Positions 23,815 through 60,423 of a stretch of DNA of 64,000 nucleotides are shown one piece after another (within the stretch, counting starts at the first letter, position 1; the number at the start of each line of letters is the position of its first letter). The notes beneath the pieces were generated by a model. It had not been told where the DNA came from and ran no database searches. It worked only from the letters and a program-made list of their open reading frames with translations. Origin of the DNA: Parcubacteria group bacterium Gr01-1014_3. GTDB lineage: Bacteria > Patescibacteriota > Minisyncoccia > UBA6257 > WO2-44-18. The translations under genes and the position numbers were made by a program. Location of the stretch: contig VMGF01000001.1 in assembly GCA_007376445.1 (NCBI GenBank), positions 316,203 through 380,202 of the forward strand. The letters run 5' to 3'.

Positions 23815-23874
23815 CGCCGTTGGCGGGGCATTGATTTTCCAGCCAATCGCTTCGCTCTTGGGAAAAATCTAATG

Positions 23875-23955
23875 TGCCCAGGGCGGGAGTTGAACCCGCA
23901 CGCCTTTCGGCATACGCACCTCAAGCGTACGCGGCTGCCGTTACGCCACCTGGGC
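23875..23955 (-). tRNA. tRNA-Leu(GAG), type II with long variable arm
   Basis: The reverse complement is GCCCAGG-TG-GCG...CGC-G-TACGC-TTGAGGT-GCGTA-var arm-GCGGG-TTCAACT-CCCGC-CCTGGGC-A. The anticodon loop TTGAGGT gives anticodon GAG. The discriminator is A. Confidence 0.8.
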
Positions 23956-32411: not shown

Positions 32412-32483
32412 GGGTGTGTAGTTCAGTGGTAGAACGCTGTCCTGATAAGACAGAGGTCGAAGGTTCGATTCCTTCCACACCCA
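32412..32483 (+). tRNA. tRNA-Ile(GAT)
   Basis: The cloverleaf is GGGTGTG-TA-GTTC-AGTGGTA-GAAC-G-CTGTC-CTGATAA-GACAG-AGGTC-GAAGG-TTCGATT-CCTTC-CACACCC-A. The anticodon is GAT. Confidence 0.85.
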
Positions 32484-32515
32484 CAGTATATTTTTTCGCC
32501 GAGAAACGAGTCTTC

Positions 32516-32590
32516 TGGTGCGCCCTGTAGGGATTGAACCTACGCTCTCACCCATGTCAAGGGTGCGCTTTACCATTAAGCTAAGGGCGC
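32516..32590 (-). tRNA. tRNA-Val(GAC), CCA encoded
   Basis: The reverse complement is GCGCCCT-TA-GCTT...AAGC-G-CACCC-TTGACAT-GGGTG-AGAGC-GTAGG-TTCAATC-CCTAC-AGGGCGC-A-CCA. It is convergent with tRNA-Ile. Confidence 0.85.
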
Positions 32591-35613: not shown

Positions 35614-37676
35614 AGCTCATAATCGTAGAATCGCCCACTAAAGCTAAAACTATCTCTAAATTCTTAGGGCCTGATTACAAGGTGGAGTCTTCTTATGGTC
35701 ACGTGCGCGATCTTCCCAAAAGCAAACTTGGGGTTGATTTGGAGAATAATTTTGAACTTCAATATGTTATTCCGGTGAAAGCCAGGAAAGTTGTTAACCA
35801 GCTTAAAAAAGACGCGAAAGATAGCGATGAGGTAATTCTCGCGACTGATGAAGACAGAGAAGGCGAGGCGATCGCTTGGCATTTGAGTCAGGCGCTTGGA
35901 TTAAAAGACCAGAAAAATATTAAACGGATCGTTTTTCACGAAATTACCAAAGCCGCGATTGAAAAAGCTCTGCAAAATCCGAGATCGCTTGATCTGAACA
36001 TGGTGGACGCCCAGCAGGCGCGCCGCGCGCTCGACCGCCTGGTGGGTTACAAGCTTTCGCCGTTCTTATGGAAAAAGGTAGCGCGGGGATTGTCGGCTGG
36101 CCGCGTGCAATCCGTGGCGGTGCGGTTGATCGTTGACCGGGAAAACGAGATCCGGGCTTTCAAGCCGGAGGAATACTACACCATCATCGCTAATCTGAAG
36201 GCGGAGTCTGTGACGGCTCCAGTTGAGGCGCTCCTTTCTAAGATCGATGGAAAGTCTTTGGAGAAATTTGATATTAAGAACGGTGAGCAGGCGAACGAAA
36301 TAGTCAGCGATCTCAAAAAACAGAAATTTGTTGTTTCGAATGTGGAAAAGCGAACGGCCAAAAAGAATCCGCCACCGCCGTTCATCACCAGCACGCTTCA
36401 GCAGGAAGCCGTAAAAAGGCTGGGATTTTCTTCAAAGAAAACGATGTTTATCGCCCAACGTCTTTACGAACAAGGTTTGATCACCTATATGCGCACCGAT
36501 TCGGTGAATCTTTCCCAAGACGCGCTTATCGCCGCCAAAAGCTGGCTGGAGAAAACTTTCGGCGCTGAATACGCCGCCGCCGCGCCGCGCGTGTTCGCCG
36601 GTAAATCCCGTCTCGCCCAGGAAGCTCACGAAGCGATCCGCCCGACCGATGTGTCCAACGCGCCGGAAGATCTGAAAGATGAAAGTGATAAAAAACTTTA
36701 CAAAATGATCTGGCAGAGATTTTTGGGTTCGCAGATGCCGGAGGCCAGGGTCGCGCTGTCTTCTCTAGAGATCACCGCGGGAAAATATACCCTGAAGGCC
36801 AGCGGCCAGCAGATCATTTTTGATGGCTACCTTAAAATCTGGCCACAAAAGTTTTCAGAAAAAGAATTGCCGGTGCTGGCGAAGAACTCCGCTCTTGATC
36901 TGGCCGAGGCGAACGCCCTTCAGCACTTTACTGAGCCACCAGCCCGTTATTCTGAAGCCAGCTTAATTAAAGTCTTGGAAGAATACGGCATCGGCCGGCC
37001 TTCAACCTACGCGCCGATCATTTCGGTGATTCAGACACGCAACTATGTCCAAAAAGAAAAAGGCCGCTTCGTGCCGACCGAAACCGGAGAACTGGTCAAT
37101 AAAGTGATGACCGAGCATTTCGCGGCAGTGGTGGATATCGATTTTACCGCCAACATGGAAGAAGAGTTGGACCATATCGCGGACGGCAAGGAAAAATGGC
37201 AGGACGTGATCGGAAAATTCTACGGTCCATTCGCGAAAAATCTGGAAGAGAAATATCTGGAAGTTTCCAAGGCACCAGAAGAAACAACCGATGAGAAATG
37301 CGAAAAATGCGGAAAGCCGATGCTGATCAAAGCCGGCCGGTTTGGCAAATTCATGGCTTGCTCCGGTTTTCCGGATTGCAAAACCACCAAACCACTGCCG
37401 AAATCAGCGCCGAAGCTGACGGGGATCAAGTGTGAAAAATGCGGCGAAGGTGAATTAGTTGAGCGCCGGGTTAACAAGGGCCGGGCTCGCGGAAAGTTTT
37501 TCTGGGGCTGTTCGAAATATCCCAAGTGCGATAACGCGACCTGGCAAGATCCGACTAAGAAAGAAGGAGAGGGCGTCGTGACGGACGGCGCGAAGGCTGT
37601 TGAAAAGCCCGCTGACACTGACAGCGAATCCGAAACACCGGAAGGACCAGAAGAGCTCGATGTCGAATCAAAGTAA
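35610..37676 (+). CDS. topA: DNA topoisomerase I
   Basis: It has the Toprim N-terminus MKLIIVESPTKAKTI, the catalytic region, and three C-terminal CxxC zinc ribbons. The listed ORF start at 35535 is an N-terminal over-extension. Confidence 0.9.
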   Translation: MKLIIVESPTKAKTISKFLGPDYKVESSYGHVRDLPKSKLGVDLENNFELQYVIPVKARKVVNQLKKDAKDSDEVILATDEDREGEAIAWHLSQALGLKDQKNIKRIVFHEITKAAIEKALQNPRSLDLNMVDAQQARRALDRLVGYKLSPFLWKKVARGLSAGRVQSVAVRLIVDRENEIRAFKPEEYYTIIANLKAESVTAPVEALLSKIDGKSLEKFDIKNGEQANEIVSDLKKQKFVVSNVEKRTAKKNPPPPFITSTLQQEAVKRLGFSSKKTMFIAQRLYEQGLITYMRTDSVNLSQDALIAAKSWLEKTFGAEYAAAAPRVFAGKSRLAQEAHEAIRPTDVSNAPEDLKDESDKKLYKMIWQRFLGSQMPEARVALSSLEITAGKYTLKASGQQIIFDGYLKIWPQKFSEKELPVLAKNSALDLAEANALQHFTEPPARYSEASLIKVLEEYGIGRPSTYAPIISVIQTRNYVQKEKGRFVPTETGELVNKVMTEHFAAVVDIDFTANMEEELDHIADGKEKWQDVIGKFYGPFAKNLEEKYLEVSKAPEETTDEKCEKCGKPMLIKAGRFGKFMACSGFPDCKTTKPLPKSAPKLTGIKCEKCGEGELVERRVNKGRARGKFFWGCSKYPKCDNATWQDPTKKEGEGVVTDGAKAVEKPADTDSESETPEGPEELDVESK

Positions 37677-37691
37677 AAAATAAACCACCGC

Positions 37692-38720
37692 TTAATAGGC
37701 GGTGGTTTTGGTAATGTGATACGGTTCTTCGGCGTTGCGGCCGATACTCCAGAGCAGATTGTCTAGCTCCACGATCGTGACCTCGTTCAAGCTGAGAGCC
37801 TTCCTGGCTTCATTGATATCATTCAGCATCTTGGCAACCGCGTAGATCGTGGCGACGCGGATCTCGGTTTCTTCCTGGCCGTATTGTTCGATCGGCTGGC
37901 GCTTCGCGATTCTTTCTCCGAAATCGTGTTCATACAGCAAGATCTTATATTTTCGGAGCGCGTTCGGCACGGCGCAGTCGGCGATCGGACCGATTTCTTC
38001 AATGTTCTTGAGCGGTTTTAGCTCACCATCCGAGTTTAGCGCCCGGCCCTGATAAACCAGTGGCCACAACTGAGCGCGTTTATTGAAATGCAAGGTGTGG
38101 CTTCGGGATTGATCTTTTCCAAATTGGAAGACCATCCTATCGCTCCCGAAAGTTTTTGGAAAAGTGGCCTGCAGCAGTTCTAGTATGCCTTTATCAGAAT
38201 TTTTTTCGGATGAAGCCGCTTCATAACTCGCGCATTCCAGAAGATTTTTGGGATCGCCGTCAAACCAATTTAGCAATTCTTCGGCTGTTTCGATCAGGAA
38301 TTCGCGACGCTCATCAAGCAGAGGGATGGCGACATTGCCTCGAAAGAACTGTTCCGCCTCTTCCTTGATGTTCATAATATGGATGAGCTTTTTGCAGTCA
38401 ACCGGCCGATTTTCGAATTGACGATAGAAGCAGGCGGCCATAGCGGCCGAACCGCGGAGATCGCCAACGGAAAATCTTTCGCCGGTATTTTCCGGATTGG
38501 TGAAGCAAAAATCAATCGCGCATTCAAACAGACTCTGGGAGATGAAAGCGGCATGATTTTCAGGAAAAGCCCCCTTCATCTTCCAGTCTGGCGGGGTGAA
38601 TTTGTATGTCGCGAGATTCCGCGCGCACTGATCCAGGTTACCTTCATCCAAATATACAAATTTCTTTTCGAATTCCGGATTTTGCCACAGTTCGATGATT
38701 TGCTTTGTGGCCTGATTCAT
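37692..38720 (-). CDS. queuosine salvage protein, Qng1/DUF2419 family (queuosine 5'-phosphate N-glycosylase-like)
   Basis: Several blocks parallel the eukaryotic Qng1 (C9orf64) family: LLDERREFLIETAEELLNWFDG, KRAQLWPLVYQ, ETEIRVATIYAVAKML and LDNLLW. This is from memory of the family, with no database check. Confidence 0.55.
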   Translation of the reverse strand: MNQATKQIIELWQNPEFEKKFVYLDEGNLDQCARNLATYKFTPPDWKMKGAFPENHAAFISQSLFECAIDFCFTNPENTGERFSVGDLRGSAAMAACFYRQFENRPVDCKKLIHIMNIKEEAEQFFRGNVAIPLLDERREFLIETAEELLNWFDGDPKNLLECASYEAASSEKNSDKGILELLQATFPKTFGSDRMVFQFGKDQSRSHTLHFNKRAQLWPLVYQGRALNSDGELKPLKNIEEIGPIADCAVPNALRKYKILLYEHDFGERIAKRQPIEQYGQEETEIRVATIYAVAKMLNDINEARKALSLNEVTIVELDNLLWSIGRNAEEPYHITKTTAY

Positions 38721-38792
38721 CCCGGTTATCCTTTCTGATGGCGAACGCTGTTGAAAAAGAACCTGTCGTAGAATAATCTGAAACTAGATGAC

Positions 38793-38850
38793 GGTCAACC
38801 CCGCACCTTTCTAAGAGTGAGGCCAATACACGAAGTGCTCTTAGAAAGGT
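38793..38850 (+). promoter_or_regulatory. 19-bp perfect inverted repeat hairpin in the divergent region between qng1-like and rel
   Basis: ccccgcacctttctaagag-(20 nt loop)-ctcttagaaaggtgcgggg immediately precedes the rel SD ggagc. A candidate -35/-10 (ttgaaa N17 taatct) lies at about 38752-38780. Confidence 0.5.
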
Positions 38851-40588
38851 GCGGGGTCAAGGAGCTTTTATGAACGTAAAAGAACTTATTCAAAAAGACA
38901 AATACAGCCTAGTGGCGAGAGCCTATGAGTTCGCCCGCAAAGCCCACTTGGGCCAGAAGCGGAAAAACGGCGAACCTTACTTTACGCACGTCGTAGCCGC
39001 CGCTGACTCGGTTTTGGAATGGGGGCTGGATGATGAGACTGCCGCCGCGGCTTTGTTGCACGATGTCGTCGAAGATACGCCTCACCCGATCCAGGAGATC
39101 CGGGAAACATTCGGAGAGGAAGTCGCTTTCCTGGTGGATGGCGTCACCAAGATTGGCAAGGTCCGCTATCGGGGCATTGAGGCCAAGGTGGAAAATCTCC
39201 GGAAATTTATTTTGTATCTCAGCCAGGACATGCGCGTGATCTTGGTGAAGTTGGCCGATCGTCTTCATAATATGAAGACTTTGTATGCAGTTCAGCCGCA
39301 AAAGCAAAAGCGGATCGCGCTCGAAACCATGGAGATCTACGCGCCTCTCGCGTACCGCTTGGGTATGCAGAGGCTGAGTGGAGAGCTGGAAGATCTGTCC
39401 TTTCCATATATTTATCCAGAGGAGCATAAGTGGCTGATCGGTCATGTTAAAGAGCGCTTCGAGGAGCGGGAACGTTTCGCGCAAAAACTTCGCCCGGTTA
39501 TTGAAAAAGAACTTAATAAGAATGGCATTGAATCGGTCCGGATTGATTCACGCGCTAAACGGTATACGAGTTTATATAAAAAATTGCTCCGCTATGATAT
39601 GAACGTCGAGAGCATCTACGATCTCGTGGCTATCCGCATCATCGTTCCTTCGCTGGAGGACTGTTACTCGGCGCTGGGTATCGTCCACAAAATGTACCCG
39701 CCGGTACCTCATCGTTTCAAAGACTATGTCGCTCTTCCGAAGTCCAACGGTTATCGGAGTTTACACACCACGGTTTTCGGTCCGGAAAATAAGATCACCG
39801 AAATCCAGATAAAAACCGAGCAGATGCATGATGAAGCGGAGCATGGCATCGCCGCGCATTTCGCCTATCAAAAAACCAAAGACTCCAAGGATTATCTCAA
39901 GCGCAACGCCGCTTTTGCCGACAAAAAGGAGCTGGTTTGGGTTCAACAGCTGAAGAACTGGCAAAAGGGTTTTACGAATCCGGAAGAATTCCTGGCTTCT
40001 TTGAAGATAGACTTCTTTCAGGACAGGATATTAGCGCTCACGCCTAAGGGCGAAGTCTTTGATCTGCCGTTTGGCGCGACACCGGTAGATTTCGCCTATC
40101 AGATCCACACCGAAATCGGGAATCATTGCTCCGGCGTAAAGATCAACGGCAAGATCGGCACACTCGATCATTTGTTGAAATCCGGCGATATCGTGGAGAT
40201 CATCACGCAAAAAAATAAGAACCCCTCGGATTCCTGGCTTAACTTCGTACGCACCGGATCGGCCAAAAATCATATCCGCGCCGCTTTGCGCCACGGGAAG
40301 ACCACCTTAAATAAGAGCGAACCGCAGTTCACGGATTTTCGTCTGGCCGTAGCAAATAGAGATGGACTATTTAATGAGATTTCAAACTTAATATCCCGTT
40401 CGCACGGAAATATCCTGACGCTTAACGCTCAAACCACGACCAACGCCAAAGGCGGGCAAGCCGGCAATCAAAAACACACTCTACTCAAAATTCGTTGCGC
40501 GGTTTTGGCGAAAGATAAATCTGAAAAGATGCTGGAGAAGTTAAAAGGGTTTAAGGAAATAAAGGAAATTTCTTACAAGTCGGTTTAG
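38849..40588 (+). CDS. rel: bifunctional (p)ppGpp synthetase/hydrolase Rel/SpoT homolog (short, lacks ACT domain)
   Basis: It has an HD hydrolase domain HLGQKRKNGEPYFTHV...LHDVVEDT, a synthetase domain RIDSRAKRYTSLYKKL...YRSLHTTVFGP, and a TGS domain. It ends before a canonical ACT domain. The start may be the Met at 38870. Confidence 0.85.
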   Translation: MRGQGAFMNVKELIQKDKYSLVARAYEFARKAHLGQKRKNGEPYFTHVVAAADSVLEWGLDDETAAAALLHDVVEDTPHPIQEIRETFGEEVAFLVDGVTKIGKVRYRGIEAKVENLRKFILYLSQDMRVILVKLADRLHNMKTLYAVQPQKQKRIALETMEIYAPLAYRLGMQRLSGELEDLSFPYIYPEEHKWLIGHVKERFEERERFAQKLRPVIEKELNKNGIESVRIDSRAKRYTSLYKKLLRYDMNVESIYDLVAIRIIVPSLEDCYSALGIVHKMYPPVPHRFKDYVALPKSNGYRSLHTTVFGPENKITEIQIKTEQMHDEAEHGIAAHFAYQKTKDSKDYLKRNAAFADKKELVWVQQLKNWQKGFTNPEEFLASLKIDFFQDRILALTPKGEVFDLPFGATPVDFAYQIHTEIGNHCSGVKINGKIGTLDHLLKSGDIVEIITQKNKNPSDSWLNFVRTGSAKNHIRAALRHGKTTLNKSEPQFTDFRLAVANRDGLFNEISNLISRSHGNILTLNAQTTTNAKGGQAGNQKHTLLKIRCAVLAKDKSEKMLEKLKGFKEIKEISYKSV

Positions 40589-41559
40589 ACTGTGAAATCT
40601 TGCGGGGGGTACTGCTCGCCCTCTACTGGCTGCCTGCCAGGTAGTGAAAGTTCGGCAGGCTCGCCAGAGGCGAGCGGATCAGCAGTGGCCGAACTTCTAC
40701 TACCTGGTTCCGGGATTATTCTTTGCACGATATTCATCAGTTCTTCGGGAGAATAAAAAGCGATGGTCAGTTTGCCCGTGGCGCCGTCCTGCTCGAGTTT
40801 TACTTTTGTACCAAGCGCGGCTTCCAGGTCTTGTTGTACGCGGAGCAGTTCTGGATTAACGCCATAATTTAAAATCTCTGGCGCCGGCTGGGCTTTTTCT
40901 TGTTTCACTTTATCGATCCGGGATTTTAATTCGCGGACGCTGAGGTTGTTGCGTATAATATCCTCAAAAAGGAAATTTTGCTGCTGGATATCCGGCACGC
41001 TGAGAAGTAGGCGGCCCTGGCTTTCGTTGATCTGGCCACGGGCGACCGCGTCTTGGATCGGGGTCGGAAGAGCGAGCAGGCGGATGGTGTTGGCGACCAC
41101 CTCACGGCTTTTACCAAGGCGGGCGCCGATCTCGCGCTGGGTCAGGTTGAACTCATCCTGAAGCCGGGAGTAGGCGCGGGCGGCTTCGATGGCGTTTAAG
41201 TTGGAGCGCTGGACGTTTTCCAAGATAGCCAACTCCAACCGATCCCGATCGCGATTGATGCTTTTGATGATCGCCGGAATACGTTCCAGGCCGGCCATCT
41301 GGGAAGCTCGCCAGCGCCGTTCACCGGCGATAAGCTGATACTGAACTTGTGTGCCCGTCTCAGTTTCCTGCTCAACCTTGGTGACGATGATCGGCTGAAG
41401 CACGCCGAATTCTCGGATGGAAGCCGCGAGCTCGCCCAATTCTTGTTCGTTAAATTCCCGCCGTGGCTGATACGGGTTAGGGGAGATCCGGTCGGTTTCA
41501 ATTAAAAAAACTGGGCCTTGAATCGGTAAGTCTTCCATAATATTCACAGTATAGCCCAA
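40585..41559 (-). CDS. parB: chromosome partitioning protein ParB/Spo0J
   Basis: It has the ParB box GERRWRA and an HTH. The native C-terminus KLTIAFYSPEELMNIVQRII is extended by about 35 aa that read into Family A element copy 2. Confidence 0.85.
   Translation of the reverse strand: MGYTVNIMEDLPIQGPVFLIETDRISPNPYQPRREFNEQELGELAASIREFGVLQPIIVTKVEQETETGTQVQYQLIAGERRWRASQMAGLERIPAIIKSINRDRDRLELAILENVQRSNLNAIEAARAYSRLQDEFNLTQREIGARLGKSREVVANTIRLLALPTPIQDAVARGQINESQGRLLLSVPDIQQQNFLFEDIIRNNLSVRELKSRIDKVKQEKAQPAPEILNYGVNPELLRVQQDLEAALGTKVKLEQDGATGKLTIAFYSPEELMNIVQRIIPEPGSRSSATADPLASGEPAELSLPGRQPVEGEQYPPQDFTV
40637..40707. repeat. Family A inverted-repeat element, copy 2 (71 nt; CCAGGTAGTGAAAGTTCGGC ... 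GCCGAACTTCTACTACCTGG)
   Basis: It has the same termini as copies 1 and 3, including the conserved TGAAA/TAGAA asymmetry. Its internal stem has a different sequence but remains complementary. Confidence 0.8.
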
Positions 41560-41606
41560 AGTTGAAAATTTGAGTAGAAAGTTTTACAATAGCAAGGACT
41601 AGCTAT

Positions 41607-41689
41607 GCTCGGGTGGCGGAACGGCAGACGCAATGGACTCAAAATCCATCGATCGCAAGGTCATGAGGGTTCAAGTCCCTCCCCGAGCA
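41607..41689 (+). tRNA. tRNA-Leu(CAA), type II
   Basis: The cloverleaf is GCTCGGG-TG-GCG...-ATGGA-CTCAAAA-TCCAT-long variable arm-GAGGG-TTCAAGT-CCCTC-CCCGAGC-A. Confidence 0.8.
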
Positions 41690-42066
41690 CACTTCGACTC
41701 GCTTTGCTCGCTCAGTGTAAACACTGACGAGGCGAAGTACCCTGAGCCCGTCGAAGGGCCTCAATATTTTTTATGAATTGGTTTGTATATATTGCCGAAT
41801 CAAAATTTGGACATTATTATACCGGAATTACCACGGATCCTTCGCAGCGGATAATTAAACACAATACTGGCAGGGGATCTCAGATGGGAAAGCAGCAGGG
41901 GCCATTTGAACTGATCTATGCCTCCAGGCCATTTCCCAATAAATCCGAAGCGCGAAAAAGAGAAATCCAAATCAAGGGTTGGACTAGAGATAAAAAAAGA
42001 AAGCTAATATTAGGAGAATGGGTCTAATTTACTCCGAGCACATTTCGACTTCGCTCAGTGTAAACA
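41683..42066 (+). mobile_element. small integrated element carrying a GIY-YIG nuclease gene, bounded by direct repeats of the tRNA-Leu(CAA) 3' end
   Basis: DR-A at 41683-41723 (ccgagcacacttcgactcgctttgctcgctcagtgtaaaca) includes the last 7 nt of the tRNA. DR-B at 42034-42066 (ccgagcacatttcgacttcgctcagtgtaaaca) lies immediately after the GIY-YIG stop. Confidence 0.7.
41773..42027 (+). CDS. GIY-YIG nuclease superfamily protein (small, URI-domain only)
   Basis: FVYIAESKFGHYYTGITTDPSQRIIKHN matches the GIY-(10-11)-YIG plus R/H core. Confidence 0.75.
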   Translation: MNWFVYIAESKFGHYYTGITTDPSQRIIKHNTGRGSQMGKQQGPFELIYASRPFPNKSEARKREIQIKGWTRDKKRKLILGEWV

Positions 42067-42103
42067 AACTAAAAAACCTCCACAGCGTGGAGGTTTAAAT
42101 TAT

Positions 42104-42808
42104 TTATGAAATCAGGGTACCAGCCGCTTCGCCGTTGATCGCCTTGAGTAAGTTGCCTTGCTCAAAGACTTTGAATATGAAGATTGGCATCTTTTTCATC
42201 TCGGCCTGGGCGACGGCGCTTCGGTCGAGGATGCCGCCGAGACCGCGTTTCAGGAATTCGTTGTAGCTGATCTTGGGGTAGCGCTTGGCATCAGGATTAC
42301 GCATCGGATCGCTTGCGTAAACACCGTCGACCTTCGTGCCTTTCATCACCACGTCCGCGCCGATATCCGAAGCGCGCAGGACTGCCGCGGTGTCGGTGGT
42401 GACACCAGAATTTCCGGTACCGCCAGCCAATACAACAACTCGACCTTTTTCCAGGTGCCGAAGAGCTCGTCGAATAATGTATGGTTCAGCGACCTTGTTA
42501 ACTTCAATTGAAGTCATAACCCTAGTTTGAAGGCCTTCCCGATCTAGAAAGTCTTGTAACATAAGGGCATTTTGAATTGTGGCCATCATACCGATATGAT
42601 CAGCCGTGGCGCTGTCCGTGCCGAAGTTTTCCGTGAGATAGCTACCGCGGACTATGTTGCCGCCGCCGATCACGATGGCTAGCTGGACTTGGCCATGGAT
42701 AGACTTGATCTCATCCGCCAAAAAATCCAAACGCTTCCGGTCAAAGATGTGGCTCTCGCCTTTTAAGGCCTCGCCAGTGATCTTCAACAAGACCCTTTTA
42801 TATGCCAT
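42104..42808 (-). CDS. pyrH: uridylate kinase
   Basis: It has KRVLLKITGEAL...AIVIGGGNIVRG and TGNSGVTTDTAA motifs. The start is probably MAYKR at 42808, with SD gaaggaggtgg. A bidirectional terminator aaaaacctccacagcgtggaggttt lies at about 42076-42100. Confidence 0.9.
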   Translation of the reverse strand: MAYKRVLLKITGEALKGESHIFDRKRLDFLADEIKSIHGQVQLAIVIGGGNIVRGSYLTENFGTDSATADHIGMMATIQNALMLQDFLDREGLQTRVMTSIEVNKVAEPYIIRRALRHLEKGRVVVLAGGTGNSGVTTDTAAVLRASDIGADVVMKGTKVDGVYASDPMRNPDAKRYPKISYNEFLKRGLGGILDRSAVAQAEMKKMPIFIFKVFEQGNLLKAINGEAAGTLIS

Positions 42809-42941
42809 TCCGCCACCTCCTTCAAAGAGCCGAAACTTCATATATAGTAGGTGGAAAATAGGCTAAAATCAAGCATATTTAGCTCTCTTGACATTTGGCT
42901 AAAAATATGATAATATATACCCAGCGAAGTACACCTCAGAA

Positions 42942-43460
42942 ATGGGGCTTTTAAATCTCAGAAGAGATTTACAACCCAGGGGCGTACCGCTTAAAAACAT
43001 GACTAATCTCATTCAAAAGGTAGTTAATGGAGTTATCTCATTGGCCATTATCGTTAATGCCCAAGCTATTACTCCGGCTACTCAATTCACTACTTTGGAC
43101 CTTGAGAATGCCTTTGTTGAAGCGGACTTGAACGCCACTGCGCTGGTCGCCAAAACTCCTTTAGAGGAGGGTGTTCGTAGGATGATGGTGGATATGACTG
43201 CCTATTCTTCGACTCCCGGCCAGACTGATGATTCGCCGTTTATTACGGCTTCCGGTCATCATGTTCGCGATGGTATCGTAGCGGCTAACTTCCTTCCAAT
43301 GTACACCCAGATCAAGATCCCCGAGCTTTTCGGCGAGAAGGTCTTCGTGGTTGAGGATAGGATGAACCGCCGTTACACTCACCGTGTCGACATTTGGTTT
43401 GCCGATACCAAGGATGCTTGGAAATTCGGTCTCAAGCGTGTAGAGATAGTGGTATTGTAA
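42942..43460 (+). CDS. 3D-domain (MltA-like) protein with signal/TM anchor
   Basis: MTAYSSTPGQTDDSPFITASGHHVRDGIVAAN...VDIWFADTKDAWKFG fits the 3D (three-Asp) domain pattern. Confidence 0.65.
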   Translation: MGLLNLRRDLQPRGVPLKNMTNLIQKVVNGVISLAIIVNAQAITPATQFTTLDLENAFVEADLNATALVAKTPLEEGVRRMMVDMTAYSSTPGQTDDSPFITASGHHVRDGIVAANFLPMYTQIKIPELFGEKVFVVEDRMNRRYTHRVDIWFADTKDAWKFGLKRVEIVVL

Positions 43461-43536
43461 ACCCAAAAGCGCCCCTCGCGGGCGCTTTTGGTTAGTTGAA
43501 AAAAAGTCGAAAAAAGATAATACTATAACTAGTTTC

Positions 43537-43609
43537 AGGCCGCATAGCCAAGTGGTAAGGCAGAAGTCTGCAAAACTTCTATGCGCCGGTTCGATTCCGG
43601 CTGCGGCCT
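43537..43609 (+). tRNA. tRNA-Cys(GCA)
   Basis: The cloverleaf is GGCCGCA...GAAGT-CTGCAAA-ACTTC...GCCGG-TTCGATT-CCGGC-TGCGGCC-T. The discriminator is U. Confidence 0.85.
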
Positions 43610-43638
43610 CCGCGAATTTTTCGCGAATATACAGATTT

Positions 43639-43719
43639 GCCCGGGTGGTGAAATGGCAGACACACATCCCTTAAGAGGATGCGCCGCAAGGCTTGCCGGT
43701 TCGAGTCCGGCCCCGGGCA
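43639..43719 (+). tRNA. tRNA-Leu(TAA), type II
   Basis: The cloverleaf is GCCCGGG-TG-GTG...-CATCC-CTTAAGA-GGATG-long arm-GCCGG-TTCGAGT-CCGGC-CCCGGGC-A. Confidence 0.85.
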
Positions 43720-44072
43720 CAATAGATAAAATGCAAACAAAATGCCAGCACAAAAATAGGAGAATCCAATCAACACCGTCGTTTCATCAGTCGGGTTTTA
43801 CCCCAACTATTTCAGAATGTGTAGATTGCAAGTTAGTCATGCAAGAGACGGAATTTCTTCAATTTGAAGCTGTGGTCGAGCTTACAAATTGGCAAAAGTG
43901 GATTCCGATGTTCATTTCAGGGATCGCATTAGTAGTCTCCGTAGTTGGTACCTGGATTAGTTGGTATAAATAATTTTTTCTCTACTCCCGCCAAAGGCGG
44001 TGCCCAAAAATTTATATTGACGTTAATATAAAATTATGCTATAAAATGCGGGTGTCGTAAGATTCAGGCACA

Positions 44073-47648: not shown

Positions 47649-48542
47649 ATGTCGGAAATCGAAAAACTGCTTAAAAACTATCTGGATTATCTGGAAATCG
47701 AGAAGAACCGGCTGGTTTTGACCAGGAATAATTATGAGCGGTATCTCCGGGCATTTTTTGAGAACGGCAAGATCGAGAAGTTAAGTCATCTTACTTTGGA
47801 TAAAATAAAGGATTTTCGTCTGGCACTCGCGCGGCGGGATCTCAAAAAATCTACCCAAGCGTACTATGTGATCGCGATCCGGAATTTCTTGAAGTATCTG
47901 ATCAAAGAGGATTATGAAGTTGTTTCGCCGGACAAGATCGAACTGCCCAAGCTTTCCCAGCGGCAGATCGAGATATTGGATACGGCTGATTTTGAAAGAT
48001 TTTTAAAGGCGCCAAAAGGCGATGATCTTCGTACTTTGCGTGACCGGGCGATCTTGGAGGTTTTCTTTTCTACCGGACTTCGTTTGTCGGAGCTCTGTAA
48101 GTTGGACCGGTATCTGAATCTGGAAAGAGGAGAGTTCACCGTGCGGGGCAAGGGTGAGAAGTTGCGGACGGTATTCTTATCTTCAACCGCCCAGGACGCT
48201 ATCAAAAAATATCTGGCTAAACGGCCGGACACTTTGGAGGTTCTTTTCGTGAGTCTCACAAAAGAAAAAGATAACCCGAAAGTGGTTGGTCCGATCACTT
48301 CCCGGTCAGTCCAGCGTATGGTTAACTACTACGCGAAAAAAGCCGGAGTTATGCATAAGATCACTCCGCACGGATTGCGCCATCTTTTCGCGACAGATTT
48401 ATTGATGAACGGCGCCGACATCCGTTCGGTTCAGGAATTATTGGGCCACAGCAATATTTCCACCACCCAGATTTACACGCACGTCACCAATAAGCATCTA
48501 CAGGACGTTCATAAGGCTTTTCACGGAAAACGCAGACGCTAA
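47649..48542 (+). CDS. tyrosine recombinase, XerC/XerD family
   Basis: It has an N-terminal SAM-like domain and the catalytic R...HGLRHLFATDLL...LGHSNISTTQIYTHV with the Tyr nucleophile. Confidence 0.85.
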   Translation: MSEIEKLLKNYLDYLEIEKNRLVLTRNNYERYLRAFFENGKIEKLSHLTLDKIKDFRLALARRDLKKSTQAYYVIAIRNFLKYLIKEDYEVVSPDKIELPKLSQRQIEILDTADFERFLKAPKGDDLRTLRDRAILEVFFSTGLRLSELCKLDRYLNLERGEFTVRGKGEKLRTVFLSSTAQDAIKKYLAKRPDTLEVLFVSLTKEKDNPKVVGPITSRSVQRMVNYYAKKAGVMHKITPHGLRHLFATDLLMNGADIRSVQELLGHSNISTTQIYTHVTNKHLQDVHKAFHGKRRR

Positions 48543-60223: not shown

Positions 60224-60342
60224 CAATAAAAAGCACCCTTCCACGAGGGCGGGGTGTTTTTGATTGTGGACGGGGGGAGACTTGCCGCCCGAAACTTCGG
60301 GCGAGCCTCGCTCAGCTTGGCTGAGCGGGAACCCCACCTATG

Positions 60343-60423
60343 TGCTCCCGACAGGATTCGAACCTGTAACCCTTGCGGGACGTGGTCCTAAGCCACGCGT
60401 GTCTGCCGTTCCACCACGGGAGC
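60343..60423 (-). tRNA. tRNA-Leu(TAG), type II
   Basis: The reverse complement is GCTCCCG-TG-GTG...-CGTGG-CTTAGGA-CCACG-long arm-ACAGG-TTCGAAT-CCTGT-CGGGAGC-A. Two short GC hairpins follow its 3' end at 60285-60335. Confidence 0.8.

Follow-up and report, generated by a model that had tools for sequence, protein, structure and literature searches.

A GIY-YIG gene behind a leucine tRNA gene

The stretch of DNA analyzed here, called the window, comprises 64,000 nucleotides (nt) of the genome of Parcubacteria group bacterium Gr01-1014_3 (contig VMGF01000001.1), and all positions are counted from its first letter. It carries an intact tRNA-Leu(CAA) gene at 41607..41689 on the + strand (the match to the Rfam tRNA model, 57.7 bits, ends at 41689, and that of ARAGORN at 41690). 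Directly behind the tRNA lie an inverted-repeat module (41690..41759, +), which scores 88.1 bits against a covariance model, R1, described below; a -10-like hexamer, CAATAT (41762..41767, +), 5 nt upstream of an ATG; and an open reading frame (ORF) at 41773..42027 (+) for an 84-residue predicted GIY-YIG nuclease of the UPF0213/YhbQ type, with an Slx1-like fold, that has the catalytic domain alone and no DNA-binding domain. The same arrangement recurs in many genomes as a module of 70-170 nt, a -10-like box, and a probably leaderless gene for an 84-residue UPF0213/Slx1-like GIY-YIG protein, 0.35-0.42 kb in all, and is designated the cassette; the GIY-YIG gene is the sole ORF of the window cassette. 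We consider it probable that window positions ~41690-42066 are one copy of a mobile cassette that is independent of integrases, targets the 3' ends of tRNA and transfer-messenger RNA (tmRNA) genes, and is driven by its nuclease.

The ORF is bracketed by a direct repeat, 41683-41723 and 42034-42066, which the first-pass annotation, made from the sequence alone, had already recognized and which comparison of the two copies confirms. Positions 41683-41699 and 42034-42050 agree in 16 of 17 residues, and positions 41708-41723 and 42051-42066 in 16 of 16, for a total of 32 of 33. An indel present in copy 1 alone measures 8 nt, rather than the 9 nt first given. Copy 1 (41683..41723, +) reads CCGAGCA, the last 7 nt of the tRNA, then CA, then a 33-nt unit H (CACTTCGACT-CGCTTTGC-TCGCTCAGTGTAAAC). 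Copy 2 (42034..42066, +) begins 6 nt past the GIY-YIG stop codon with a pseudo tRNA 3' end, again CCGAGCA and CA, followed by a short, 25-nt unit H (CATTTCGACTTCGCTCAGTGTAAAC) and an A. Removing GCAAAGCG (- strand notation) from copy 1 yields copy 2 but for one substitution, and the two copies are therefore true paralogues. With up to three mismatches allowed, both blocks are confined to these two sites within the window; two matches arose in none of 100 shuffles for the 17-mer and in 6 of 100 for the 16-mer.

The repeat had been described as the tRNA 3' end plus sequence downstream of it. This holds for 7 nt, CCGAGCA (6 nt of the acceptor 3' strand and the discriminator), plus the CA. The tRNA-Leu(CAA) gene does not encode CCA (it ends GAGCA-CAC), and CA is the usual start of the trailer in this genome: five of the seven tRNA genes of the window (23874-23955, 32412-32484, 41607-41690, 43639-43720 and 60342-60423) have CA right after the discriminator (A-CA-N) and no encoded CCA, while the tRNA-Val gene (32516-32590) does encode CCA. 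The other 24-32 nt of the repeat are not tRNA trailer. They are a repeat unit of the cassette itself, 25-33 nt long, which is found in every family member whatever the adjoining gene.

A promoter-like site of the tRNA gene, TTGAAA-17-TACAAT (41562..41590, +), is the sole good sigma-70-type match upstream of the tRNA-cassette unit, and no terminator was found between the tRNA and the GIY-YIG ORF in the window. Beyond the repeat, a hairpin with a perfect 10-bp stem and T-runs on both strands (42074..42096) forms a bidirectional terminator for the tRNA/cassette unit and for the convergent gene pyrH, which encodes UMP kinase (42104..42841, -). The gene on the left is parB (40585..41559, -). A Logan contig, L010 (run SRR8863434), is 100% identical to window positions 36104-43683, 7.6 kb that include the locus. 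An assembly artefact is therefore unlikely, provided that L010 was assembled independently of the window.

An empty site in a related genome

The GIY-YIG gene had been read from the outset as inserted at the 3' end of tRNA-Leu(CAA), and a search for an unoccupied tRNA-Leu(CAA) locus in a related genome found one. When a metagenome collection was scanned for the final 27 nt of the tRNA, most matches were unrelated leucine tRNAs, but one was in L098, a 3.1-kb Hainich groundwater contig collinear with window positions 39375-42679. The gene order, relA/spoT-parB-tRNA-Leu(CAA)-pyrH, is that of the window. The tRNA genes are identical, and the flanking genes share 77% (relA/spoT), 81% (parB) and 80% (pyrH) nucleotide identity. 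The ~57 nt behind the tRNA in L098 consist of CCA, 26 A/T-rich bases, a hairpin terminator and the pyrH stop. This interval contains no GIY-YIG gene by tblastn, no repeat, and no module by model R1, so that ~380 nt found between tRNA and terminator in the window are absent. The GIY-YIG region of the window is an insertion. The L098 hairpin, ~30 nt past the tRNA, differs in sequence from the one at the same place in the window; because it is equivalent to it, the cassette sits between the tRNA and the terminator that belongs to it. Two PyrH homologues tried as sources of an empty site were uninformative, P0121 because it comes from the same genome (L010, 100% identical), and P0122/L011 (82% nucleotide identity) because a different gene follows pyrH.

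A cassette family at the 3' ends of RNA genes

Homologues of the 84-residue protein that are 65-81% identical to it are common in metagenomes of the Candidate Phyla Radiation (CPR)/Patescibacteria, whose members are ultra-small bacteria. A scan that admitted one genome per species found at least 224 loci with relatives, of which 80 were retrieved. Hosts include Sungbacteria, Saccharibacteria, Peri-/Peregrinibacteria and many Parcubacteria groups, and also Omnitrophota and Aminicenantia. No relatives occur in IMG/VR viral contigs, and searches of PHROGs, PADLOC and NCBIfam returned no match; the results from IMG/VR, PHROGs and PADLOC led us to reject a viral origin or a role in defence. Several cassettes fall in bins of unrelated phyla: L020 and L029 (Gammaproteobacteria), L050 (Bdellovibrionales), L013 (Aminicenantia), and L045, L084, L087 and L089 (Omnitrophota). 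These are 59-74% identical to the CPR ones, and all Omnitrophota copies follow tmRNA. They represent either horizontal spread or mis-binned CPR contigs.

Placement was counted in the 76 non-redundant loci for which 260 nt or more of upstream sequence was available. A tRNA on the same strand lies no more than 260 nt upstream in 44 of these, while a tmRNA ends at the module in 9 more as found by ARAGORN and in 4 further as found by Rfam. A tRNA or tmRNA 3' end on the same strand thus stands at the module in at least 57 of the 76 loci, where the tRNA density of the window leads us to estimate a chance expectation of ~1-2%. The junction is precise. In the 45 loci that could be placed automatically, which span 17 anticodons plus tmRNA, the first base of the module falls 0, 1 or 2 nt inside the RNA gene end given by ARAGORN. 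Lineages that encode CCA show ...CCA followed by TTCGAC at the junction, and the lineage of the window shows ...A-CA followed by CTTCGAC. Some other loci have a truncated tRNA upstream, or, in L072, a 13-nt tmRNA 3' stub only.

An inverted-repeat module built from one short unit

The module is composed of three copies of one short inverted-repeat unit. In the window, unit H (41690-41722) and an inverted partner (~41723-41738) pair into a long hairpin whose loop is GTAAAC; unit U (CCCTGAGCCCGTCGAAGGGC), the third, occupies 41740-41759. Across the family, the adjoining gene is followed by the pattern C-NNN-TCGACTCG...CTCGCTCA-n'n'n'G-TAAAC, then by the inverted partner, ...CGAG(T/G)CGA-N'N'N'-AC, then by the third unit, CCCTGAGC...GTCGAAGGGC. 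The triplet NNN varies by lineage (ACT, TCT, CAT, CCT, CAC), and the three places where it or its complement occurs covary. In the orientation opposite to that of the ORF, the basic unit reads GTTTAC-NNN-(T/C)GAGC-[variable]-GTCGA(A/G)-N'N'N'. The window has three such units, 41690-41722, 41740-41759 and 42041-42065, all within the cassette, and the ORF is flanked by inverted units, U (41740-41759) on one side and H (42041-42065) on the other. Dispersed copies of the kind known from repetitive extragenic palindromic (REP) sequences were not found in the window outside the cassette, where other matches to the pattern occur at the frequency expected from shuffles. Units also flank the ORF in L061, L001 and L006; most family cassettes have no unit after the ORF.

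Complementarity within the module is conserved through sequence change. When 16 short examples were aligned with MAFFT and passed to RNAalifold, 14 pairs were predicted, and compensatory changes occur in 10 of these. Model R1 was built from the same 16 examples and searched in 86 sources, which gave 95 matches, one directly upstream of nearly every family ORF and a single one in the window. Across these 95 matches the paired fraction of cells is 95.4%, where column shuffles give 79.6%; changes on both sides occur in 13 of the 14 model pairs, and sliding the partner by 1-3 columns lowers pairing to 52% or less. The 95-match alignment was fitted to R1, which favours pairing, but the independent MAFFT/RNAalifold result agrees. 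G.U cells (23) are not enriched over A.C cells (16), which is unusual for a functional RNA; the complementarity fits selection at the level of DNA, where it could form a hairpin or cruciform or provide a palindromic site for a protein. The window module does fold well as RNA (z = -4.2), and the strong covariation first favoured an RNA structure; that reading was down-weighted because of the lack of G.U excess and because a -10-like box stands between module and ATG. In a search of Rfam 15 over 41500-42150 with E<=10, the tRNA alone reached threshold and all other matches were far below gathering scores. A ribozyme core was also considered and rejected, since CUGAGC...GUCGAAG fits no hammerhead or other core by eye, in agreement with Rfam.

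Mini-units of 24-25 nt (GTTTACCCTGAGnnnGTCGAAGGG), nearly identical across distant phyla, occur solo or nested in other units: L085 2014-2037, L089 1108-1131, L019 2763-2786, L044 2428-2451, L048 2341-2364, L080 2415-2439, L006 4372-4396 and L014 376-399. Locus L046 also has solo or nested units. Nested mini-units sit in host sites CCCT^GAGC or CGTG^GTAAAC, and mini-units in general behave like very small insertions of the REP type or of the type known as miniature inverted-repeat transposable elements (MITEs). Modules without an ORF are found after tRNA-Thr in L065 (2832-2907 and 2909-2952, with rpmG next), after tRNA-Leu(GAG) in L061 (376-491, - strand), and ~400 nt downstream of a cassette in L066 (3144-3254). 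These may be non-autonomous or decayed copies. A further short repeat, GAGGTTCTAAC[GTCGTCTA], recurs around the near-identical cassettes of L001 (4300-4325 and 4405-4420) and L006 (3836-3860, 4350-4365 and 4468-4480), which lie in different contexts, and the L006 cassette has the GAGGTTCTAAC repeat on either side. This repeat may have arisen as a duplicated target, or it may be local and unrelated.

Signs of movement between RNA genes

Position is not conserved among the closest homologues. The nearest relatives of the window protein, at 77-81% amino acid identity, follow tRNA-Leu(TAG) (L001), tRNA-Gly(GCC) (L112) and tRNA-Ala(CGC) (L113), and another close relative (L005) adjoins rpsO, a picture that suits the early description of the locus as a minimal selfish, homing-like module. 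One metagenome-assembled genome, JABICL01, contains two paralogous cassettes, L058 after tRNA-Ile, and L072. These are alike from the junction, ...CCACCA followed by TTCGATTCG, to the stop codon, and unrelated beyond. The limits of this homology define the unit of movement as module, promoter-like box and ORF, 0.35-0.42 kb. In L072 the cassette is preceded by a 13-nt fragment of a tmRNA 3' end (GGCATCTCCACCA, 2349-2361) with no tmRNA gene upstream; a full tmRNA is present at the corresponding site in its relatives L059, L062, L064 and L071. L072 thus suggests that part of a former target can travel with a moving cassette as a stub.

In 44 loci, the 150 nt past the stop codon were searched for similarity to the final 20 nt of the upstream tRNA. 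Four reached a score of 12 or more, L061 (17 nt), L043 (14), L086 (13) and L050 (12), a level attained by 0.14% of comparisons when the downstream regions of other loci served as the null. A test anchored at the junction found duplicates of at least 9 nt in 3 of 59 loci against a null of 0.0003, with weaker cases in L051 (8+2 nt), the window (7+2) and L024. About one locus in eight, then, has behind the cassette a locus-specific duplicate of the last 7-18 nt of the RNA gene, beyond which the trailer and terminator appear to be native. The duplicates of the window and L061 continue across one entire repeat unit and end just past GTAAAC(C)A.

The GIY-YIG protein

The 84-residue protein matches Pfam family PF01541 (GIY-YIG) with E=2.1e-16, residues 2-76 aligning to positions 1-77 of the 78 in the profile. 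Positions invariant among 28 family members include Y6, Y16, G18, R26, H30 and E64, which, by analogy with I-TevI and Slx1, would be the catalytic Tyr, Tyr-Gly, Arg, His and Glu of GIY-YIG enzymes. A profile of the 28 members, searched against the PDB, finds the UPF0213 structures 1zg2 (E=1e-19) and 1ywl (5e-12) and, weakly, SLX1 (6e-3). An AlphaFold (AF2) model with a mean predicted local distance difference test score (pLDDT) of 88.4 has the same two structures as its nearest folds. Next come At-HIGLE (template-modelling score, TM, 0.70; root-mean-square deviation 1.9 A) and Slx1-Slx4, entries 7wme and 6seh ranking ahead of 1yd6 and 1ln0. The UvrC N-terminal domain and I-TevI rank behind Slx1/HIGLE, I-TevI in 16th place.

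Relatives at E<=1e-3 number 4763 among 1.84 billion cluster representatives, and few exceed ~55% identity, so that the tRNA-linked form is a compact clade of a large family. UPF0213 genes at a greater distance (35-45% identity), in Pseudomonas megaplasmids, Salinivibrio replicons and a Rhizobium jumbo phage, stand in ordinary, operon-like contexts. No tRNA or module is annotated beside them, in plasmid records that list no RNA genes and at loci that were not scanned, and the tRNA linkage looks specific to the cassette subfamily. To our knowledge bacterial UPF0213 has no assigned function, and a literature search for UPF0213, judged by title, found nothing evidently related.

In 35 of the 80 loci the ATG is preceded, at a distance of 12 or 14 nt, by a TAnnnT box, often TATAAT or TGnTAnnAT, and a Shine-Dalgarno-like motif is present in only 10 of the 80. 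Together these features point to a gene that is probably transcribed from its own promoter into a leaderless mRNA.

Weighing the explanations

The identity of the unit that moves, the empty site, the precise and repeated use of RNA gene 3' ends and the locus-specific duplicates all enter into the reading we favour, that of a mobile cassette. Several observations weigh against it. The sole empty site comes from a relative only ~80% identical, so that loss in the L098 lineage is possible, and the exact boundaries of the insertion are not readable from L098. About 85% of loci have no detectable duplication, which is perhaps not an obligatory product of insertion; at 41-50 nt, the duplication of the window and L061 is too long for a simple staggered cut unless a solo unit existed there beforehand. 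About a quarter of the loci have no recognizable adjoining tRNA or tmRNA. Five cassettes in different genomes (L005, L014, L035, L039 and L055) are divergent from the start of rpsO. In L037, L053, L060 and L067, which share gene context, the ORF is inverted relative to the module. Conservation of the protein across phyla (58-81%) could reflect a function beneficial to the host. Finally, a bare catalytic domain of 84 residues leaves the recognition of targets unexplained, and endonuclease activity is itself predicted from sequence.

The rpsO-divergent position, which is not at a tRNA, seems to be inherited vertically, and three of its five occurrences (L005, L035 and L055) have a Xer-like gene downstream. 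At the loci with inverted ORFs, the module is on the - strand and ends ~9 nt from the ORF stop, pointing towards it.

One alternative holds that the H/U repeat unit is the real mobile or functional entity, similar to REP or MITE sequences, and that the GIY-YIG gene is either an associated nuclease, as are REP-associated tyrosine transposases (RAYTs), or a passenger; copy 2 in the window would then be a solo unit. Such units do occur away from ORFs or nested (L006, L019, L044, L046, L048, L080, L085 and L089), as do ORF-less modules after tRNA-Thr (L065) and tRNA-Leu(GAG) (L061). Complementarity restricted to Watson-Crick pairs is typical of DNA hairpin repeats, and the window ORF is flanked by the inverted units U and H. 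Against this stand the confinement of the units to the cassette within the 64 kb, which is not the dispersal of REP sequences; the absence of a unit after the ORF in most cassettes; and the 7 duplicated tRNA nt beside the second unit, which insertion of a solo unit would leave unexplained. We regard this alternative as unlikely, and it overlaps our preferred explanation instead of excluding it.

It is rather improbable that the GIY-YIG gene is a non-mobile accessory gene, that the upstream structure acts as RNA (a 3' trailer, a processing signal or an attenuator), that the repeat arose by slippage or tandem duplication, and that absence means gene loss. The protein is strongly conserved. The structure begins exactly where the tRNA 3' end is processed, the absence of an intervening terminator in the window would allow co-transcription from the tRNA promoter, and the z of -4.2 for the RNA fold of the window module also speaks for this account. 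It has to contend, however, with a position that shifts between closest homologues and between two copies in one genome, and with the recurrence of locus-specific duplicates of different tRNA ends. The helices show no G.U excess and match no Rfam family, and in many loci a -10-like box 6-9 nt before the ATG puts the module upstream of the likely start of the mRNA.

The first-pass annotation had taken the repeats for the attL/attR signature of site-specific integration. On such an account a tyrosine integrase, whether the Xer-like gene at 47649 or one since lost, would have recombined the tRNA gene with an attP that bore the tRNA-Leu 3' end, and the GIY-YIG gene would be what is left of the cargo of a decayed island. 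The architecture (intact tRNA, insert, pseudo 3' end, native trailer, terminator) is that of integrase products, tRNA and tmRNA genes are the classical targets of integrases, and five loci (L001, L005, L035, L055 and L043) have a Xer- or integrase-like gene no more than a few kb away, but we judge this account very improbable, because only 7 nt (plus CA) of the repeat belong to the tRNA and the rest is the unit of the element itself; because near-identical cassettes use at least 17 anticodons and tmRNA, all of which a fixed attP could not match; because the junction coincides with the 3' terminus of the RNA gene and does not fall in an anticodon or T loop; because homology between paralogues stops at the stop codon, with no further cargo; and because integrase-like genes (41-83% identical to the window Xer) are near just 5 of 90 family loci, at least 3 of which share the rpsO-divergent context. 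The Xer-like gene of the window shows no association with the cassette: it is 5.6 kb away, beyond pyrH, a 172-residue ORF, two tRNAs and further genes.

A possible mechanism

For the mobile cassette we infer the following mechanism. The cassette's own nuclease, which belongs to a branch of the GIY-YIG enzymes that cuts hairpins and branched DNA, would recognize the repeat unit, the T-arm/acceptor end of tRNA-like genes, or both. It would make a break, and repair would copy the cassette in. Duplication could then arise by either of two routes. In the first, the break would be staggered, with one nick fixed after the tRNA-CA or after the GTAAAC of a resident unit and the other 7-18 nt upstream, and fill-in would follow. 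In the second, an excised copy carrying a short stub of an RNA gene 3' end, as seen in L072, would enter by a Campbell-type crossover. The right edge of the duplication would in that case mark the end of homology, CA at a naive site or the end of the solo unit at a pre-seeded one. The present observations accord with either route. The expected empty allele would have ...CCCCGAGCACA joined directly to AACTAAAAAACCTCCAC, or, after excision across the repeat, unit H and that same trailer; a circle would be expected to join ...GGGTCTAATTTACT to CCGAGCACACTTCGAC. Insertion just past the mature 3' end leaves the tRNA intact and is therefore probably near-neutral, which would explain persistence.

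Tentatively, we raise the possibility that the cassette is an autonomous bacterial mobile element of a new class and, at ~0.35-0.42 kb, the smallest to date. The nuclease would recognize DNA hairpins formed by the unit and by the T-arm/acceptor end of tRNA and tmRNA genes, and the element would insert both itself and non-autonomous 24-nt mini-units precisely at RNA gene 3' ends with neither an integrase nor a transposase; we hold this fuller proposal to be less likely than not.

Comparison with known systems

If the cassette is moved by its 84-residue nuclease, it is smaller than the smallest insertion sequences (IS) known to us, those of the IS200 type at ~0.7 kb. A bare Slx1-like GIY-YIG domain and a DNA hairpin module would then suffice for targeted mobility, tRNA and tmRNA 3' ends would be open to a second, integrase-free route, and UPF0213, for which structures have been available since 2005 (1zg2, 1ywl), would gain a first and testable biological role. 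The cassettes could also mark horizontal exchange among CPR, Omnitrophota and other groundwater lineages. Cassettes and mini-units are a source of junk ORFs and of confusion in assembly and annotation beside CPR tRNA genes. We found no description of the cassette in the full-text literature, a search that left most subscription journals outside its coverage, so that a prior description is possible.

The protein shares family and fold with UPF0213/YhbQ/YazA (COG2827) and with Slx1/HIGLE. Slx1 differs in requiring Slx4 and in having a RING domain. The free-standing Seg genes of T4-like phages (SegA-G) are, like the cassette, stand-alone GIY-YIG genes that vary in presence between relatives. They likewise are inserted between conserved genes without disrupting them, and SegB, in the tRNA gene cluster of T4, is also linked to tRNA. 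The intron-encoded I-TevI binds to an operator at the promoter of its gene; unit U, which lies beside the -10-like box, may be comparable. Seg proteins and I-TevI, however, are ~200-250 residues long, with a linker and a DNA-binding domain, whereas the cassette protein is a catalytic core of 84 residues, its fold nearer to those of Slx1 and UPF0213 than to that of I-TevI. No conserved inverted-repeat module accompanies Seg genes, which neither target many tRNA 3' ends nor produce a target duplication. Phage records contain only distant UPF0213 homologues of the cassette protein, with 39-45% identity.

Islands and prophages at tRNA and tmRNA genes resemble the cassette in their target, the 3' end of the RNA gene, in the intact tRNA, in the pseudo 3' end on the far side and in the native trailer behind it. 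They measure several kb or more and bring an integrase; the cassette is ~0.4 kb with no integrase in or near it. Its duplicate is short and of variable length (7-18 nt) and its junction is at the discriminator or CCA, while islands join inside the T or anticodon loop. Unlike tyrosine-integrase islands, a single cassette family uses at least 17 anticodons.

REP/RAYT systems (REPtrons) and the IS200/IS605 family combine, as the cassette does, short DNA units that are imperfect palindromes with one small nuclease gene, and some cassette copies resemble them further in having inverted flanking units and solo or nested mini-copies. IS608 selects its target by guide/target pairing; the tri- or tetranucleotide beside the cassette junction, which covaries with internal sequence, recalls this, as a resemblance only. 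The enzyme of these systems is an HUH Y1 transposase, and that of the cassette belongs to the GIY-YIG family. Cassette units show no dispersal into hundreds of copies within the 64-kb window, which has three, all inside the cassette, and IS200/IS605 elements show neither the targeting of RNA gene 3' ends nor the target duplication seen in some cassettes.

The cassette thus lacks a defining feature of each: the DNA-binding domain of homing genes, the integrase of islands, and the HUH transposase of REP and IS elements. We rate it as a selfish nuclease gene with a target-site preference, and there is a substantial chance that it represents a new, very small autonomous class. In its behaviour the cassette resembles free-standing homing-endonuclease genes, and its landing sites are those of integrase-bearing islands.

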